Sequence record: OZ346222.1
Length of the DNA stretch: 64,000 nt
Strand: one strand, 5' to 3'
DNA from: a phage
In this document: positions 1,928 to 29,831 of the stretch, in pieces
Layout of the letters: every line of letters starts with the position of its first letter
How positions within the stretch are numbered: position 1 is the first letter of the stretch
Made by a program: the position numbers and the translations under genes
The notes under the pieces: model-generated
Told to the model about the DNA's origin: nothing
What the model saw: the letters and a program-made list of their open reading frames with translations, nothing else
Databases searched by the model: none

Positions 1928-3995
1928 ATTTATGGCATCTGCATACAACCGTTTCGGTGAGCCAAACCCGAAAGCAACTAAGTATAAAAGTGGGGGAAGT
2001 GTGAAACGAGACTATCGTGATGAAAAAGAGGTTGAAACTGTAGAGACTGTTTTAGAAAATACTAAAATCGTCCCTGTCCCACAACAAAATATCGGTCTGA
2101 TGGCTGCACAATATTTTGGTGTGCGATCAGCATTATCCCAAGAAGATGGTGTGACAGTCACTGCAACATATTTCCCATATTACGACCGCTACGGAAATCT
2201 GTCCGGTTTCAAAAAGCGTGACTGGACGATTCCTAAAGAGCAAAGAGGCCATTTCTCCGTTGTTGGCATAGTAAAGGCTAACTCTCAGATGTTTGGTCAA
2301 AAGCTGTGTGCATCTTCCAACAACCGTAAGCAGATTAACGTTTGTGAGGGAGAAGGTGATGTTATTGCAGCATGGCAGGCTGCATATCAGATACAAGTAA
2401 AAGGGATTCTCACCAACGCTAAAGCCCCGGCAAAGGTGAAACAGTGGGCTAAAGAGGTCCAGGACGGGATCGATGCAGTTATCAACGGTGGCGATCTGGC
2501 AGGAAAACCATGCCTGCCTTTTGTTGGAATTAACTGTGGATGTGCAAACGCAGTAGATACTTTTGCAAACAATGAGAAGTTTATCCGTAGCTATGGAACA
2601 GTTGTGCTGGCAATGGATAACGATGCAGCTAACGAGGTAGAGAAGCAAAAACACGTCATTAAAGGTGTTGAGGCCACGCACAATATCGCAGCATTTTTGA
2701 TGGCTGATAACGTTTACCACGTAGAATACCCTGGTGAAGTAAATGACCCTGACGGGGTAAAAGATATCCGTGACATGCTGAAGGCTAAAAAGCTGGAAGA
2801 TATTGTCAACATGTTCCGGCACCCTGTTAAATATGTGCCTGATGCTGTGTCGGATTTAGAAGACTTCTCTATCGAGTCTTTGCGGAAAAAGACTTCCAAC
2901 GGGGTAGATATCAGCGCAGAGTTCCCAAAACTGCAAAAAATGCTAAAAGGCTTGCACAAAGGGACACTCGTAATGCTTACAGGGCCATCAGGGGGCGGTA
3001 AAACAACTGTAGCTAAAAAACTGGAACATTGTATTGCAAGATACCTAATGGACCCGACATGCCCGAAGGCTGATGACTATGAAGAGGATGATCGTCTATG
3101 TATGATCCATCTTGAGGAGGACCCGGAGGAAGCAATTAACTCCTTGTATGCAAACCAGTTAGGGTTTGATGTTAAAGAGTTTGTTGAAGATCCTAGCCAG
3201 TTTTTAACTGATCAAGAACACGCAGAGATTCACCAATCATGGGCAAAAGCTGGAAAAATCAAAGTGTTCAAACATTTCGGATCTATTCCGGTGGACGAGT
3301 TGATTACCAAGCTTAAGCAAATGGTTTGCCTGTACCATTGCCGTTATATTGTGCTGGATCACCTGTCCATGGTAATTTCAGGGCTTAATGTTAAGGATGA
3401 GCGAAAAGAACTGGACATGGCTATGACTCAGCTGGCTGCGTTTTGTAAGCAGTTTAACGTGTTTATCTTAGTGATCGCTCACCTCAAACGTACAGAGATT
3501 GTGCCTCCTAAGGACAAGGATGGTAACCCGTTACCTTTCTGGTATCCTGTGCGAAAAGAGAATTTGCGAGGATCGGCGGGGCTTGAACAGTTGAGTTGGG
3601 TAGTCATAGGTGTCGAGGCCGAAGAAATGGTGGATCGTTCTCGTGGACGTGTCCGTCTGGTAGGTCTTAAAAACCGTCCAGCAAAAACTTTAGGTATTGC
3701 TGACACTTTGGTTATGGACCCGCACACAGGTAAGTTCCATGATGCCAGTAATTGGTACTGGGACAAAGAAATGCAAATGTTTACAGACGGAGAAGGTGGG
3801 GAGGTTGTTTGGAGACCTCAGGCTATGTTTGAGGATCAGGAGCATGCAGTTGTAGAAACACCTATGGGCAAGGTTGTGGCTGATAAGGTTGTAACTCCTA
3901 CTGTTAAGCCTGTTGACACGCAGGAAGACCTCCAGTACGATGATCCATCCTCTGACCCGGTCCCTGGTTTTGAGGATGATGAAACGCCTTTTTAA
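1917..3995 (+). CDS. DNA primase/helicase (TOPRIM primase + DnaB-like helicase, T7 gp4-like)
   Basis: TOPRIM-like CEGEGD and MDNDAA motifs; Walker A GPSGGGKTT; Walker B IVLDHLS; acidic C-terminus ending DDETPF. Confidence 0.8.
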   Translation: MGSKFMASAYNRFGEPNPKATKYKSGGSVKRDYRDEKEVETVETVLENTKIVPVPQQNIGLMAAQYFGVRSALSQEDGVTVTATYFPYYDRYGNLSGFKKRDWTIPKEQRGHFSVVGIVKANSQMFGQKLCASSNNRKQINVCEGEGDVIAAWQAAYQIQVKGILTNAKAPAKVKQWAKEVQDGIDAVINGGDLAGKPCLPFVGINCGCANAVDTFANNEKFIRSYGTVVLAMDNDAANEVEKQKHVIKGVEATHNIAAFLMADNVYHVEYPGEVNDPDGVKDIRDMLKAKKLEDIVNMFRHPVKYVPDAVSDLEDFSIESLRKKTSNGVDISAEFPKLQKMLKGLHKGTLVMLTGPSGGGKTTVAKKLEHCIARYLMDPTCPKADDYEEDDRLCMIHLEEDPEEAINSLYANQLGFDVKEFVEDPSQFLTDQEHAEIHQSWAKAGKIKVFKHFGSIPVDELITKLKQMVCLYHCRYIVLDHLSMVISGLNVKDERKELDMAMTQLAAFCKQFNVFILVIAHLKRTEIVPPKDKDGNPLPFWYPVRKENLRGSAGLEQLSWVVIGVEAEEMVDRSRGRVRLVGLKNRPAKTLGIADTLVMDPHTGKFHDASNWYWDKEMQMFTDGEGGEVVWRPQAMFEDQEHAVVETPMGKVVADKVVTPTVKPVDTQEDLQYDDPSSDPVPGFEDDETPF

Positions 3996-4053: not shown

Positions 4054-6447
4054 ATGAGTATGTGGTCTTTCGATTTTGAGTCATCCGGTTTGCTGGAAGA
4101 CCCAGATCTTTATTATCACTGCGGTCTGTTTAAAGAGCTGAATAAGAACCGTTTTATGCTGTTCCTTCCTCTAAATGACCGCACACACTACTCCGAGGAG
4201 GATATAGAAAAGGCTAAGAACTTCATTCTGTCAAAGAAAACTCTTTATAAAGATTTTGAAGTTCGCATAGCAGATTTTTCGGAGTTGGAAGGTTGGCTTA
4301 CAGGCAATTCTGACTGGTCACCAACAGCTTTGAACTGCCATAACTGCTACAGTTATGACTTTATGCTAATGGAAAGATTATCCGGTATTCATTTTGATAT
4401 GTTCCGTGATCCTAAATGCATGGGGACTATCAACGACCACCAGGTTAACCTGTTTGATACGTTGGCTATGAGCCGAATCTTGTGGCCTGATCGCCCTTTA
4501 CCAAAAGGTTGTCCGGACGCTGTATTCAACCCGGTTACTAAGAAAATGCAACCTGTTGGTCCTCACGGCCTTATGGCATGGGGCTACGCCCTTGGTAACC
4601 AGAAAGTTCAAATTGATGACTGGCGCGATCTTCCGTTGTGGAAGTATGTGGATCGTGTATTCGAGGACGTTATCATCCAGGAGCTGCTCTGGAAAGAGCT
4701 GGTAGCGGAATCAAAAGGTGTATTCTACGGCAAATCTGACATGCAGAACTTTATGTACGATCCAGCCAAAGAGAAGCCGAAAGGGTTCAAGAAGATCACC
4801 TGGAAGAACGCATTACGTCGAGGCATGCTGCAGCACTTCCTGATGGAGCTGCAGGCCCGTCAGGGTGTATACTTCGACATAGATGGAGCTATTGCTTTAC
4901 GTGACCGTTGCGATGCGTGGATGAAAGAAATCGCTGATCGTGTTGAACCACAACTACCTTTAAAAGAGCTGTCAATGTCTCAGCGGCCCAAGTTCCCTGA
5001 AAAGCCGTTTAACCAAGACGGGACAATCTCTAATAATGGTTGGAAATGGTTAAAAGATAAGCTTGGCTATCCTGTAGACATGAGTGCTTTAGAGTTCAAA
5101 GCCCCGCCTAAGCGAGCATTTACCTCTACAGGAGATGTCAGCAAGATGGGGATAAAATGGTGTGAAGAGATGGGCTGCAAAGACCCCGATAAGATGGCTG
5201 ATTTCTTGAGAGGCTATATTAAGGGCACCTCCACACCACAACCCTTACCTAAAGAGCTGATGGATCAGGCAATAAGTGATCTGCAGCAGAAGCGAATGCC
5301 TGACTGCAAGATACCTATGAAAATCAGCAATCAGGACGACATCAAGCGATACCTAATCAGTGCTGGTTGGCTCCCAACAATGTGGAGAACTAAAGATGTA
5401 ACTAAAGACAGCAAGAAGAAAGCTTTACCTGATGCAGATGTTGATGCACGAGTATATGCATATATGGACGAGCTTTTGGAGTCAGAGTATTGTGACCTAA
5501 TTATCAACTTCTGGAACAAAACTGATGCTAAGTTCCAGACAACCGTGCACAAGTTCCGAAGCTTTCCTAACTCCGAAAGGATTAAAAAGGAAGTATTCGG
5601 GAAAATACGTAGAAAAGCCAGGGCACTTATTACTTCTCCGCAACTGAAAGATACGTTTGGACACCTATGCCCAAATCTTGAAAAATTGAACGGAGAGATG
5701 GCTAAAGATATCGTCTTGTGGTTATCATTGCGAAACCGCAGATCGGTCCTTGATCCAATCAAGGAGGATAAGGTTGATACTGGTCTTCTTAATCACCCAC
5801 GTTTGAAGATTGACCATAAGCTTCCTGCTAAAAGCTCTGGATTAACAAACACTTCCAGACAGAAACACAGTATTTGTGCAAACATGCCTAAACCATCTCC
5901 TAAAGTGGTTATGGGTAAAGAGATGCGTAGTCTGTGGGGTGTTCCTCCGGGATACTTTGAGATCGGTATTGACGGGTCCAACTTAGAGCAGCTTATCGGG
6001 GCTTGGGGTGCCTTTGAGTTCGACAACGGCCTGTATTATGATGTTGTAAGTAACGGAGACGCACACCAAAACAATGCTGAGGCATATACAAAAGTGGCAG
6101 GCAGAGAGGTGTCCCGTAACGACGGTAAACCTATCACGTATGGGGTTATGTACGGGGCACAAAAAGATAAAGTTGCAGATATGTTGGACATCTCCCCAGA
6201 GTTGGGACAAAGGGTAATCGATGCACTCTGGGATGCCAACCCAGGTCTTAAGGGGCGCAAAGAGGATCTGGAGAAATTCTGGGAAGCAACAGGTAAGAAG
6301 TTTATCTACTCTTTTGATGGTCATGCTATCTGGACCCGATCTAAACACTCTTTACTTAATGCATACCAACAAAATGGCGGTGCATCGTTGTGTGACTTAG
6401 TTGGAATACTCATGCACCACCAGATGGTGAAGCGTGGGTGGTACGAT
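4054..6447 (+). CDS. DNA polymerase, family A (exon 1: 3'-5' exonuclease and polymerase motifs A and B)
   Basis: Exo I FDFESSG; motif A-like IDGSNLEQL; motif B-like KPITYGVMYGA; uninterrupted ORF runs to TAA at 6481-6483 but lacks the conserved C-terminal region; 3' boundary set at proposed 5' splice site. Confidence 0.75.
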
Positions 6448-6753
6448 GAAGGTGTTCGTCGTATTATTTATTACCATAAATAACATTGTGGCTTCATAGA
6501 GTAATCTATGTCGAATAACCTCTTTAACTGCGGGAAGCCTAAACCTTATGGCAAGGTAATCCGCAACGAAGCGCTCAAAAGAGCGAACGCTCAGAGGCCA
6601 TTCCGAAAGGAAGTAGACCAGCAAGTGCGGTCGAAATGGGAGGATTCCTGTGGTTGCTTATCATAGGAATATGAGATGGTCCGATCCTACGTGAAAACGT
6701 ATGGCTATGCACGTAATGGTGCGGGGTAGCTTAACGACCTACCTGAACTATTG
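6448..6753 (+). other. putative group I self-splicing intron (about 306 nt, no ORF) in DNA polymerase gene
   Basis: Four in-frame stops between two same-frame polymerase ORFs; P-like CTGCGGGAAG (6527-6537), Q-like AATCCGCAACG (6558-6568), R-like GTAGACCAGCAAG (6613-6625), S-like ATGAGATGGTCCGA (6671-6684) with R/S covariation; exon UACGAU (6442-6447) can pair with intron GUCGUA (6458-6463) giving U.G at splice site; G at 6753. Confidence 0.5.
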
Positions 6754-25988: not shown

Positions 25989-26252
25989 ATGAAACGTCTT
26001 GATCAGCTTAAACTAGTTCAGTACATGGCCTACAAAGTTCTTGAAGTCCAAAAAGGTAGCAAAAAAGAGGTTTGCGAGAAAGCGTACAAGATCTTTACCC
26101 GTAAAAAAGATGATTGGATGTTACGCCAGACCAAAAAAGCCGATATCTTGGGGTACCTGGAAGAAGAGATCCGACTTGAAGAGCAAGAAGAGATCCGCCG
26201 CAGTGAGGCAGATTATCAGGCAGCCTGGGAAAACTGGATGAGCAACAAATAA
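25989..26252 (+). CDS. hypothetical protein (87 aa)
   Basis: Conserved leader/RBS. Confidence 0.5.
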   Translation: MKRLDQLKLVQYMAYKVLEVQKGSKKEVCEKAYKIFTRKKDDWMLRQTKKADILGYLEEEIRLEEQEEIRRSEADYQAAWENWMSNK

Positions 26253-26834: not shown

Positions 26835-26860
26835 AAGGGGCTTAGGCCCCTTTCTTTTTG
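26835..26860 (+). terminator. rho-independent terminator
   Basis: AAGGGGC-TTAG-GCCCCTT hairpin followed by TCTTTTT. Confidence 0.6.
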
Positions 26861-27477
26861 TCTGCTCTTCCCCCTACCATAAACGGCCCTACCTGGCAAG
26901 TGGAATAATTGACGAGCCATCAATCCCACACACTGTACAAATATACATGTAAAATAACTATTGCATAACCTTTCATTGTGTGGTAGCGGTGCTATTTTTT
27001 ACCTGTTTTCCTTCCAAAATTGCACGTAATGCAGCTATTGCACAAAATTTAACCTGATGCACATCTCCAATATCCTGTCAACAACTAAAAATCTTTATAA
27101 GTCATACACTTACACAGCATCGAAAGCGTGTTCTACGCGAAAAATCGAGTATAACTATAGCCGCCAGATCTCAGAATTCACGTACGCACGCCATTCTATA
27201 GCCTGCAAAGTATTTATTCCAACCACAGAATAACGGAATAGTCAATACCTGAATAAAATAATTATTCGTTTAAACTGCATAACATAAATCAGCTCAGGTG
27301 TCAACATTTTTCGTAAACAGTCTGAAATTGTCACTGTGAGTTATCATAAACAGAGAAATCTTTAGTCGTATAATGTTTACTGTACGTTACTATACTGACT
27401 GGAATCATTAGATGACTAATAGAAAGATAAGAAATAATTAACAATACAATTATTTTACCTGTAACAATAAGACAACT

Positions 27478-27726
27478 ATGCAAACGAATGGCATGGCGCG
27501 ACGGAGTCGCGACATAATATAAAAGCAGTAACCATCACCCCCGTGATGGTTTGTCTGCAATCTATTAATCAGATCATAGTTGCCTTGTATTCAGTTAATC
27601 ATGACATAATAAGCAAGGCAACTATAGATCTGCTAATAGTTGCCCTGCTTTTATATTATGTCATATATTATTAACTTGTTAATTGTTAACTTGCTAATTG
27701 TTTTCATGCAAACGAATGTCATGGCT
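27478..27726. repeat. palindrome-rich module flanked by 21-bp direct repeats
   Basis: ATGCAAACGAATG(G/T)CATGGC at 27478 and 27706; perfect 18-bp inverted repeat GACATAATATAAAAGCAG / CTGCTTTTATATTATGTC (27510/27645); 12-bp inverted repeat CATAGTTGCCTTG / CAAGGCAACTATG; several short hairpins. Confidence 0.75.
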
Positions 27727-27734
27727 TATCCTAT

Positions 27735-27805
27735 CTGTGTAAACAGTTAAGGTGTAAACTATCCAGGCGTAAACAGTCTATGCGGGAACAATCTATACGT
27801 GAACA
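27735..27805. repeat. iteron-like array of GT(A/G)AACAG octamers
   Basis: GTAAACAG / GTAAACTA / GTAAACAG / GTGAACAG spaced 10-20 bp; further copies near 27313, 28078, 28790. Confidence 0.6.
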
Positions 27806-28357
27806 GTGAAACATGAAATAATAACAGTCGTTATTGTGTCGAAAGTGTATAAGGTGTCAGACAAGTTTTTCTCCTCTTTGTCAAGTGCTGCATGAAAAAT
27901 TTACAAGCTTGTATGGTAGCATTTTTGCGGCCCTGTTTACATTCAGCGATGTATGTATAATCCTTGTTGTGTGGGCGTTTAGACGTCTAGACGGTCAGAA
28001 GTCTGCAGGTTAATACCTAATCTATCGGCTGCTAACTATATCCCACACAAATAGTAAGAAATATAATTGTTATGTGCGTAAACAGTAACTCATGTTATCA
28101 ATCCCTGTATGTATCGCCAGTGGTGCGCATAATGGGTATTATGTTAAATTGCCCGTAATGATAACTATTCTCACAATGATAGGTATTCTCATTCACTCCC
28201 ACAAGATAGGTTGCAAATGTTGTGCCACTGTGTGAACGGCCTAACCTATTAATTTGCCTCACTGCCTCGATATTTGAGAATTGTTATAAGAATGAGAAGT
28301 ATTCCCATTTCGTCCGCCTGGCAGCACTCCAGTCGCTACCGCTCATGACAGGGCAGA

Positions 28358-29610
28358 ACTAGACCCTCTTCAGATATTTCTGGCTGACTCTTCAGGTCTG
28401 TGTGGGAAAAGCCAACCTCTCCGGCGGCGGGGAGGGGGTCAATTAAAAAAAATTACGTGGTGCATGAAGCGCTCTTCAGGTAAGGCATGTGTTATGGGAT
28501 GAAACCCTCTTCAGGCAATGATATTTGTGGGTGTGATATTTGCTGGAAAGCCAGATATGACGGGACTCCTGGCGGGGCAGGGGTAGTACAGACAGGGAAA
28601 ATATGGGGGATGTAGTTGGGGAAATTGATCAGACAGGTAGAGTATGGAATATGTTACAAGTATGTTAAATAGGGAGGATGAATATCTGCAGGATTTGTGT
28701 GTAAAATCAAAGACTTAAGTGGTGTTGTGGTATTTTCTATAAATAATTCAAGTTTAATAGGTAATATTTGTCTCTATCCACTTTGTGTGGTAAACAGATT
28801 CAGATGAAATTGGTTTACAAGTGTATACATAATATACAAATTAAAGATACAAGAAACCCCCCTCCCCCTTCGGCTACCATTCACCTTTTCCTCTGACTGG
28901 TACTTAAACACTTATTCAGACTCTTCAGGTTATCACCCATATATCATATGGCAGTGACTGGTGTCCTCCGGCCCCTCTTTCGTCACCCGTCCGCTTCGCC
29001 ATGCTAATGCCATAGCCAATGGTTCGGTTGTTCACTCTGTTCACTCAGGTGTATCTCCATACCCCTTCAAACCGAAGAGAACAGAAAACCCGAATTACTC
29101 GGTAAAAGAAAAGAGAAGAACTTAATTTTATCAGGATAGGCAAGAATGTCAAGGCATGACTGCTCACTAAACAAGCAAACAGTCATGTGTGGAAGGTAAG
29201 TGATTGTGGTGGTGGGAAATTTAGTTGAAAGATGTGTTATAGGTGCGCTTCCAGCACTTTGGCCGGGCAGCTAATTGTGTGTCAGTCCAGCGGTTCATCC
29301 TCTACTTCACTGAAATCAATGTTCATGGTCTCCTCCCAACCATCGATCTCAGCACAAGAGTGGAGTTCTTTAGGGTTTACTCCCAAAGCCTCAGCAACAG
29401 AGTCTATATTTAACACCTCTGGCAGGTATGATTCATCGAATTCAAGGTAAATCAGGCCACGAGTGTTGTCAGCTCCACCAAATATCTCTATCTTCATGAA
29501 ATCTCCTCTGGAAATGAGAGTGTGAACAGGGTTTTATACGTTCTAATGCACAGGAATTATACACGTTTGCCTCTTCAGGCCATGCTTTAGCATGAGGAAC
29601 CTGTGTGGGC
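28358..29610. repeat. dispersed CTCTTCAG(G) motifs, often followed by TGTGTGGG
   Basis: Six copies on the same strand (about 28358, 28388, 28465, 28505, 28918, 29567) within a G/T-rich non-coding stretch. Confidence 0.6.
29282..29497 (-). CDS. hypothetical acidic protein (71 aa)
   Basis: Last gene of leftward block; begins MKIEI like several paralogs. Confidence 0.45.
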   Translation of the reverse strand: MKIEIFGGADNTRGLIYLEFDESYLPEVLNIDSVAEALGVNPKELHSCAEIDGWEETMNIDFSEVEDEPLD

Positions 29611-29618
29611 TCGGTGCT

Positions 29619-29831
29619 TCATAGTCTACCACCTCTGAACTCTTCGTGCTCAGGCATAATAGAGAACCAGATATCTACGATGTCCTCCCACGTCAGGTCA
29701 TCAGCCTCAGGATCTGTCTGGGACGAAGATGAAGAGTCCTCAGAATCTAAGTTTTCCTCTTTAACTGGCTCATCCAAGGGACATATGGTCACTCCTTCGG
29801 ATGTCTCTTCAGATGCATGTGTGTTGATCAT
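29619..29831 (-). CDS. hypothetical highly acidic protein (70 aa)
   Basis: Asp/Glu/Ser-rich. Confidence 0.4.
   Translation of the reverse strand: MINTHASEETSEGVTICPLDEPVKEENLDSEDSSSSSQTDPEADDLTWEDIVDIWFSIMPEHEEFRGGRL

Follow-up and report, generated by a model that had tools for sequence, protein, structure and literature searches.

What do repeated copies of one short word do in phage DNA that appears to encode no protein? The question is raised by the 64,000-nucleotide stretch of phage DNA analyzed here (sequence record OZ346222.1, hereafter the window), in which the 9-mer CTCTTCAGG and its shorter form CTCTTCAG recur on one strand. The 2.1 kb around these motifs match 122 phage records at 80-99% identity, all of them rV5-like and of the genus Vequintavirus, and on this similarity the window is part of a Vequintavirus (rV5-like) genome. 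Phages of this type are isolated widely and form part of cocktails for therapy and biocontrol, while their "non-coding box" of about 2 kb has, to our knowledge, remained unexplained since the rV5 genome paper. Since the plus-strand genes of the window stop near 27233 (the last clear plus-strand terminator is at 26835-26852) and the minus-strand genes start at 29282, the motif region corresponds to this box of the rV5 map, where two gene arms converge. The array of motifs that it holds abuts a predicted virion end, and our tentative answer is that it may help to recognize the ends of the genome.

Six copies of the motif on one strand had been noticed in a first-pass annotation made from the letters of the window. 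All six are present on the plus strand, 0-8 nt from where they had been placed, and a seventh can be added. CTCTTCAG is found at 28366 (copy 1), 28388 (copy 2), 28472 (copy 3), 28507 (copy 4), 28921 (copy 5), 29571 (copy 6) and 29805 (copy 7), in the following settings:

28366-28379, plus strand: copy 1, CTCTTCAG fused to GATATTT box B in the string CTCTTCAGATATTT, 48-61 bp outside the direct terminal repeat (DTR).
28388-28406, plus strand: copy 2, reading CTCTTCAGG-TC-TGTGTGGG, with a 9-mer invariant in 19 genomes.
28464-28541, plus strand: copies 3 (28472-28480) and 4 (28507-28515), a 35-bp tandem unit, then GATATTT boxes C and D.
28921-28929, plus strand: copy 5, inside an almost invariant block (28853-29118).
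29556-29609, minus strand: copy 6 (29571-29579), intergenic and upstream of the open reading frame (ORF) 29497-29282, with a -10 element at 29561-29556.
29805-29812, plus strand: copy 7, within the minus-strand ORF 29619-29831, with 4 of 9 columns invariant.

Such a cluster is not expected by chance. The window contains 12 copies of CTCTTCAG against 2.30 expected, a number reached in none of 100 shuffles, and the seven plus-strand copies above fall within 1454 bp (28366-29812), where 0.02 are expected per strand. Full 9-mers of CTCTTCAGG number five in 1.3 kb (28388, 28472, 28507, 28921 and 29571) against 0.004 expected. The remaining plus-strand copies of CTCTTCAG (40237, 45816, 52449 and 53316) lie inside minus-strand ORFs, as does copy 7, which is probably coincidental. 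All window copies outside the box are within ORFs, where they read CT-GAA-GAG or CCT-GAA-G and represent ordinary coding sequence; likewise, the remaining 76 kb of the related phage HdK5 hold four copies of CTCTTCAG or CTGAAGAG on the two strands together, each inside an annotated coding sequence. Because all others lie in coding sequence in both the window and HdK5, non-coding copies are unique to the box beside the terminal repeat. The pairs 28366/28388 (repeat family D15, 22 bp) and 28472/28507 (D13, 35 bp) are two local duplications; the six copies are not independent events.

Conservation was assessed in an alignment of 19 Vequintavirus sequences. The 9-mers at 28388, 28507, 28921 and 29571 are invariant in these genomes and the one at 28472 is invariant at seven of its nine positions. 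For copies 2-4 taken together, 25 of 27 columns are invariant compared to a local background of 70% (P = 0.005). Copies 28366 and 29805 vary within the genus: in the former only TTCAGA (in TTCAGATATTTCTGG) is conserved, CTCTTCAG itself is present in 2 of 19 genomes, and most relatives read CC(T/C)NTTCAG. A lack of conservation in relatives had been named as the result that would speak against these motifs, and this objection fails because the motifs, which are non-random and strand-specific, are conserved there.

What places the array next to a genome end is a repeat and a second type of box:

27860-28318, no strand assigned: DTR of 459 bp, placed by homology to phages HdK5 and Gotham.
28269-28275, plus strand: GATATTT box A, inside the DTR, whose last base is 49 nt after the G of the box.
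28373-28379, plus strand: GATATTT box B, found in all genera, 54-98 nt outside the boundary.
28520-28526 and 28535-28541, plus strand: GATATTT boxes C and D, which follow copy 4.

One and the same 459-nt sequence opens and closes the HdK5 record, and it aligns with the window from 28318 to 27860. For Gotham, terminal repeats of 459 bp with a fixed start of packaging have been reported (PMC7471380), and its GenBank repeat_region 1-459 covers the same DNA as the DTR of the window. The records of bov25_3 and YN3 start at window position 28318, as inferred from the position of a dif-like core described below, and the genome of phage CM1 has a perfect 523-bp tandem duplication that ends at this same base. 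By homology, the virion ends of this isolate would be at 27860 and 28318. Ends at the motifs themselves, which the first-pass annotation had suggested, were not found, the nearest homology-placed virion end (28318/28319) being 48 bp to the left of the first copy. Copies 1-4 are 48-205 bp outside the right DTR boundary, so that a repeated motif adjoins a terminase cut in the manner of cosB or pac elements if the homology-based boundary applies.

The duplication in CM1, a Shigella phage, is at 2023-3068 of its record, and positions 2353-3492 of phage I29 duplicate window 28102-28646 with a 120-nt perfect palindrome at the junction. Both are probably assembly artefacts of physical ends or else real rearrangements. 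DNA just outside both DTR boundaries is hypervariable (nucleotide diversity, pi, of 0.38 for 27660-27859 and 0.24 for 28319-28368, with 0.06 for the DTR).

Other genera share this architecture of convergent arms, a non-coding box and a repeat of about 0.5 kb. In KPP-1 (Mydovirus) the repeat measures 514 bp (PMC9862379), the records of KP12 and DP break at the corresponding base, and Hena1 (Henunavirus) is annotated with a repeat at 1-519. GATATTT keeps its position in all genera examined, and the distance of 49 nt from box A to the end of the DTR is identical in the window and HdK5, in KPP-1 and in Hena1. For these three genera, the ends come from independent sources (identical record ends, PhageTerm and annotation). 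At the right boundary the sequence is GTCCG(C/T)C, with T across the cut. In Seunavirus, the motif and box B occur in the fused form CTCTTCAGGATATTT. These regularities make the GATATTT boxes candidate terminase recognition or cut elements.

The CTCTTCAGG motif can also be followed beyond the genus. A BLAST comparison of the box with those of KPP-1, PVP-SE1, 4MG, GAP31 and pEp_SNUABM_01 revealed almost nothing in common, with the exception of a 30-mer inside the repeat and an exact 17-mer, GGCTGACTCTTCAGGTC, which contains copy 2 and is shared with Seunavirus GAP31, where it forms the -35 element and spacer of a leftward promoter. Even so, CTTCAGG occurs 3-7 times on the plus strand within 1.8 kb to the right of the 30-mer (the side of its XerD arm) in Vequinta-, Seuna- and Mydovirus (P from 1e-4 to 1e-11), and not once on this strand to its left. 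This bias of side and strand persists though the flanks have diverged beyond recognition by BLAST, and copies 1 and 2 have positional orthologues in Seunavirus. The conserved part of copy 2 is a spacer-like core, CCTGAAGAGTCAGCC, and not the -35 hexamer (CAGACC here, TTGACC in GAP31), so copy 2 fits a protein site better than a promoter. A search of metagenomes with its 17-mer gave 55 matches, of which only two were Vequintavirus and the rest chance; in IMG/VR, two contigs matched.

These observations suggest that the CTCTTCAGG copies form a protein-binding array in a genome-end processing region, similar to pac or cosB and interleaved with the cut-locked GATATTT boxes. We rank this reading first because the array is interleaved with those boxes, one-sided and unique genome-wide, while holding it with less than even confidence. 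Sites for a factor or packaging signals were already among the proposals of the first-pass annotation and stay the best reading, given that the array abuts the terminal-repeat cut site. A sequence-specific DNA-binding protein would recognize the copies beside this cut, the likeliest candidates being the small terminase subunit or an accessory end-binding factor. Copies and GATATTT boxes would together form an extended recognition region that positions the packaging machinery to cut after GTCCGYC at the right edge of the repeat. The distal copies at 28921, in a putative non-coding transcript, and 29571, in a promoter, could be secondary sites or may serve transcription.

Known recognition arrays offer partial parallels. 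In lambda cosB (R3-I1-R2-R1) and in the hexamer arrays of P1 pac, terminase recognition repeats lie beside the cut. Similarly, the window has several copies of a short, conserved, non-coding motif about 50-200 bp from the cut on one side, and as with the P1 hexamers, a second type of box (GATATTT) flanks the cut. Unlike these systems, the ends here are direct terminal repeats and not cohesive ends or headful products, and two copies are more than 0.6 kb away; in contrast to lambda cosB, the lone match to the IHF consensus (28705) is outside the array and not statistically notable. T7 also has arrays of short repeats, of unproven function, which adjoin its terminal repetition. As in T7, oriented short repeats lie in unique DNA beside a short DTR and a promoter reads towards the repeat; unlike T7, there are far fewer copies of a different sequence, on one side only, the polymerase would be that of the host, and we identified no concatemer-junction pause signal.

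Several findings weigh against an end-recognition array. The DTR of this isolate is positioned by homology, two of the four proximal copies came from local duplication, and the spacings of 22, 84 and 35 bp have no helical phasing. Copies extend up to 1.45 kb from the cut, and to about 1.5 kb in the sister genera (or 1.7-1.8 kb when counted from the dif-like core), a long distance for a terminase site. Henunavirus and Certrevirus lack the motif, yet keep the GTCCGTC cut context and the GATATTT boxes. Finally, most sister-genus copies belong to transcription signals and have short inverted repeats on their flanks. If the array nevertheless serves packaging or end recognition, it delimits the smallest cis region required for engineering or rebooting rV5-like phages or for packaging DNA with them, and it also helps to predict their transduction behaviour. 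The box now has virion ends placed by homology, a cut-site sequence, candidate recognition boxes and a conserved, oriented motif array.

The last objection leads to the main rival, held with only slightly less confidence: a signal linked to transcription of the leftward arm. As RNA or within the non-template strand, CC[UGAAGA]GG would form a mini-hairpin or an operator that would terminate, pause or block transcription before it reaches the terminal repeat, or a regulator bound there would shut the last leftward promoters. In each of the three genera, the motif has the orientation of the leftward arm's sense strand. In the sister genera, CCTGAAG(A/T)G on the minus strand, which is the sense strand of the leftward genes, is found in three settings. 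One is the loop of a canonical terminator, GGAGCC-TGAAGA-GGCTCC-TTTTCTTT (GGAGCC-UGAAGA-GGCUCC-UUUUCUUU as RNA); in the second, the motif opens the spacer of good sigma70 promoters, TTGACC-TGAAGAGTC...-TATACT/TATGCT, both settings being seen in KPP-1, 4MG and GAP31; the third comprises other short hairpins. At least five independent sister-genus loci are flanked by 3-6-bp inverted repeats. The earlier view that the motif matches neither sigma70 promoters nor terminators is only in part correct: it does not extend to Seunavirus and Mydovirus, where the motif is both an intrinsic terminator loop and part of a TTGACC-N17-TATNCT spacer.

Nor does it hold for copy 6, which lies in the -35/spacer region of a minus-strand promoter. 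Read on that strand, copy 6 is CCCACACA-N22-CCTGAAGAG-N9-TATAAT, an instance of the unit CCCACACA-N(2-25)-CCTGAAGAG, and the first base of this -10 varies within the genus. It alone resembles the sister-genus arrangement, as ATGGCC-TGAAGAGGCAAACGTG-TATAAT upstream of ORF 29497-29282. The motif copies of the window do not otherwise qualify as sigma70 promoters: a good -10 (TATAAT, on the minus strand and 9 nt downstream) accompanies copy 6 alone, copies 2 and 4 are marginal in this respect and copies 3 and 5 have none. A new class of promoter with the motif near -30 and a -10 was rejected for this reason. None of the canonical TTGAC-type promoter matches of the window (about 20 on the minus-strand arm) carries the motif, which is also absent from the many intergenic regions of the same arm and has no counterpart on the other convergent arm. 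Since no other promoter match or intergenic region of the arm has it, the motif is specific to the flank of the repeat rather than a general transcription signal. The copies of the window do not form intrinsic terminators either, as within the genus their stems are of 1-3 bp and lack a U-tract, and the stem variants of copy 2 are not compensatory.

Three features of the minus strand bear on how leftward transcription might end:

29125-29152, minus strand: near-consensus sigma70 promoter TTGACA-16-TGnTAAAAT, pointing left, with 11 of 12 consensus positions and the TG of an extended -10.
28853-29118, minus strand: almost invariant non-coding block of 266 nt, which holds copy 5 and the C-run 28857-28868.
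28540-28760, minus strand: C-rich, G-poor unstructured tract, with 30.8% C and 9.0% G in minus-strand RNA over 221 nt.

The -10 and TG of the promoter are invariant in the genus, one genome has an altered -35, and the variation is mostly in the spacer. Of the 266 columns of the block, 254 are invariant, and its pi of 0.0087 compares with 0.048-0.139 in adjacent ORFs. All 119 records that match it are at least 95% identical (every listed record at least 98%) and none is from outside the genus. It spans from the predicted transcription start near 29118 to a G-run/U-stretch near 28856, contains no convincing ORF, Rfam match or folding signal, and is probably a conserved leftward non-coding transcript.

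The tract at 28540-28760 has a GC skew of +0.34 to +0.45, and its minus-strand RNA is mostly unpaired in minimum free energy and centroid structures (z +0.10). It thus has the predicted properties of a rut site, which calls for some 80 nt or more of C-rich, G-poor and unstructured RNA. Immediately downstream of the tract come copies 4 to 1, in the zone where Rho-dependent release would be expected. Between genes 163 and 164, the authors of the rV5 genome paper expected bidirectional intrinsic terminators but saw none (PMC3606486). The rut-like tract and the motif copies could act as this "missing" terminator for leftward transcripts and keep transcription out of the repeat. We also observed a mirror tract on the plus strand at 28853-29118 (32% C, 17% G), such that each convergent transcript would meet a rut-like stretch of its own, and together the two tracts may account for the bidirectional terminator that the rV5 map lacks.

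An RNA hairpin bound by a protein, as in lambda nutL boxB (GCCCUGAAGAAGGGC), is a related idea. The minus-strand motif shares CCUGAAGA with boxB, and the sister-genus copies occupy the loop of a hairpin on the early-transcript sense strand. Unlike boxB, the UGAAGA hexaloop is closed by C-G and is not a GNRNA pentaloop closed by U-A, stems in the genus are of 1-3 bp, there are several copies, which lie at the far end of the operon, and we found no boxA to accompany them. The motif therefore does not have the 5-bp stem, GNRNA loop, boxA and location near an early promoter that characterize a lambda-type nut/boxB site.

It is rather unlikely that the copies are functionless relics of an ancestral promoter/terminator cassette (TTGACCTGAAGAGTC; GGAGCCTGAAGAGGCTCC) that was duplicated and kept by the slow divergence of the box. 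The two local duplications would fit such a history, and so would copy 2, which is orthologous to a good promoter of GAP31 and KPP-1 and has degenerate hexamers here, as well as the variability of copies 1 and 7 and a surrounding G-rich tract that is already 70% invariant. However, the 9-mers are more conserved than these surroundings, as given above, and the core persists across genera between flanks that cannot be aligned, with a strict bias of strand and side in three genera.

Another possibility is centred on a recombination site that lies in the terminal repeat:

28122-28149, plus strand: dif-like XerC/XerD core GGTGCGCATAA-TGGGTA-TTATGTTAAAT, inside the DTR and 210 bp to the left of the motif region.

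Both 11-bp arms are identical to Escherichia coli dif at 22 of 22 positions, with 0 matches expected by chance, and the 6-bp centre is within the 6-8 bp usual for XerCD sites. It is part of the cross-genus 30-mer and is conserved in Vequinta-, Seuna-, Mydo-, Henuna- and Certrevirus. In eight phages of these five genera, the XerD arm is conserved at 11 of 11 positions and the XerC arm has 0-2 changes, while the central 6 bp are genus-specific and never the host TGTATA. A match is carried by 197 phage records, and among the matches listed, the full-length ones are all of Vequintavirinae type. The site is inside the annotated terminal repeat of both Gotham and Hena1. As in chromosomal dif and plasmid cer and psi, a centre of 6 bp lies between XerC and XerD arms of 11 bp each; unlike them, the phage site sits in the terminal repeat of large virulent phages and its centre is never TGTATA. 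This conservation suggests that host XerCD may act on phage terminal repeats, in cyclization or multimer resolution. We found no paper linking Xer or XerD to these phages in a literature search. The site poses a testable question: do large virulent phages enlist the host resolvase of chromosome dimers to act on their terminal repeats?

Extending this to the motif array is speculative. The box would then be a control centre of the genome ends where Vequintavirinae hijack XerCD, and the CTCTTCAGG/GATATTT array would be a phage-specific accessory or control region, a scheme that we regard as unlikely. With a core in both repeat copies, XerCD would circularize the incoming linear genome or resolve replication multimers, a role comparable to that of P1 Cre-lox, and the one-sided array on the XerD-arm side would govern the Xer reaction or later hand the DNA over to terminase.

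FtsK-orienting polar sequences (KOPS) were considered for the G- and C-rich runs of the box, since both runs match GGGNAGGG. This sequence is weakly enriched (9 in the window against 4.4 expected) and of mixed orientation: those at 28429 and 28575 (plus) point away from the dif-like core and only that at 28860 (minus) points towards it. The KOPS reading was rejected, because the sites are not oriented to the core from both sides. The label "FtsK DNA translocase" given to ORF 25989-26252 in some records has no Pfam support.

Other repeats are found around the core. GTAAACAG occurs 7 times in the window (2.4 expected), with 6 of the 7 in the non-coding box (27313-28797), mostly on the plus strand and to the left of or inside the DTR. 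AATGA(T/G)ANNTATTC(T/C)CA is present in the DTR as three direct copies (28157-28191 and 28291-28307) and one inverted copy (28275-28287); copies are just to the right of the XerD arm and are labelled "repeat_region" in Danish phage records, and the words AATGAT and GAATGA recur near the dif-like core in other genera. The Pectobacterium phages CB7 and phiTE also carry the core (3501-3528 in CB7), and CB7, the one examined in detail, has GATATTT boxes and a convergent non-coding box as well. Both phages are reportedly circularly permuted headful packagers; a short terminal repeat may have been missed in them.

Elements of a replication origin, that is iteron-like sites and/or R-loop priming by a G-rich transcript from the 29152 promoter, are quite improbable. 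A strong conserved promoter would give a G-rich (32% G) non-coding RNA, and replication and nucleotide-metabolism genes flank the box on both arms (DnaB-like helicase, family A DNA polymerase, NrdD, NrdA/B and ligase). Both would fit an origin, as would the skew changes reported at the box (PMC3606486). Against it, these changes coincide with the switch in transcription direction, irregular spacing sets the 9-mers apart from iterons, and DnaA boxes are not enriched. Sites of IHF, another host factor tried as a candidate, are not enriched either.

The remaining proposal, also from the first-pass annotation, combined plus-strand promoters or small-RNA starts at the motifs with a helix of about 430 nt between a G-rich and a C-rich run:

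28416-28438, plus strand: GC-rich hairpin with a G-run (the left "arm"), in which CCTCTCC (28416-28422) pairs with GGGGAGG (28429-28435).

This proposal is hardly credible: the plus strand is G-rich at 28369-28760 and the runs are indeed complementary, and against this no -10/-35 lies at a consistent distance from the motif, the only strong promoter (29152-29125) is on the opposite strand and has no motif, and the two arms behave differently in the genus. Specifically, GGCGGGGAGGGGG (28426-28438) and CCCCCCTCCCCC (28857-28868) are complementary over 10-11 nt about 420 bp apart, as had been noticed. The G-run varies (GGGGAGGG or GGGCAGGG), with insertions of 30-70 nt in 6 of 19 genomes, and pairs locally, in a hairpin comparable to those present in other genera. 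The C-run is invariant because it is at the edge of the conserved block. Given this, and with no covariation, a functional long-range helix is unlikely and was rejected. Folding gave no support for a structured RNA: z was +0.87 (plus) and +0.10 (minus) for 28360-28770, and between -0.4 and +0.9 on both strands for this region and 28830-29120, no better than shuffles. Alifold with 13 distinct genus sequences found no compensatory pairs, though their variation is too low for this to be decisive, and Rfam searches of 27200-29700 up to E = 5 returned no match in the box. A CsrB-like sponge RNA was considered for the GGA-rich plus-strand tract and dropped, since the motif lacks GGA in the genus and the tract lacks structure.

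Several copies of the motif had also been described as followed by TGTG(T)GGG. The strict form is present at 28399, 25 nt after copy 28366 and 3 nt after copy 28388, and at 29602, 23 nt after copy 29571. Looser GT-rich strings (TGTGTTATGGG, TTGTGGGTGTG and TGTGTGTTG) follow the copies at 28472, 28507 and 29805, and none follows 28921. In sister genera, CA-rich CCACACAA usually precedes the minus-strand motif, which is TGTGTGG read from the opposite strand. TGTGTGG is over-represented throughout the window (27 against 8.7 expected, 11 of them between 25625 and 29949) and is not specific to CTCTTCAGG.

We found no transcriptome of these phages in the literature. A host origin of the sequence at 28319-29281 was rejected, as it has no match among 5,426 E. 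coli genomes. At the gathering threshold, the sole Rfam match in the whole window is a group I intron (RF00028, 64.7 bits) at 6468-6703 on the plus strand, directly 3' of the family A DNA polymerase ORF 4054-6483, and the polymerase gene is for this reason probably split. A cassette of the form TTTTAGATGGCC-TTGACT-(C/T)CAGGGCCATC-...-TAAAnT occurs in three plus-strand copies (17545, 18166 and 21904); its -35 hexamer is in the loop of a GGCC hairpin, so that a terminator and a promoter overlap.

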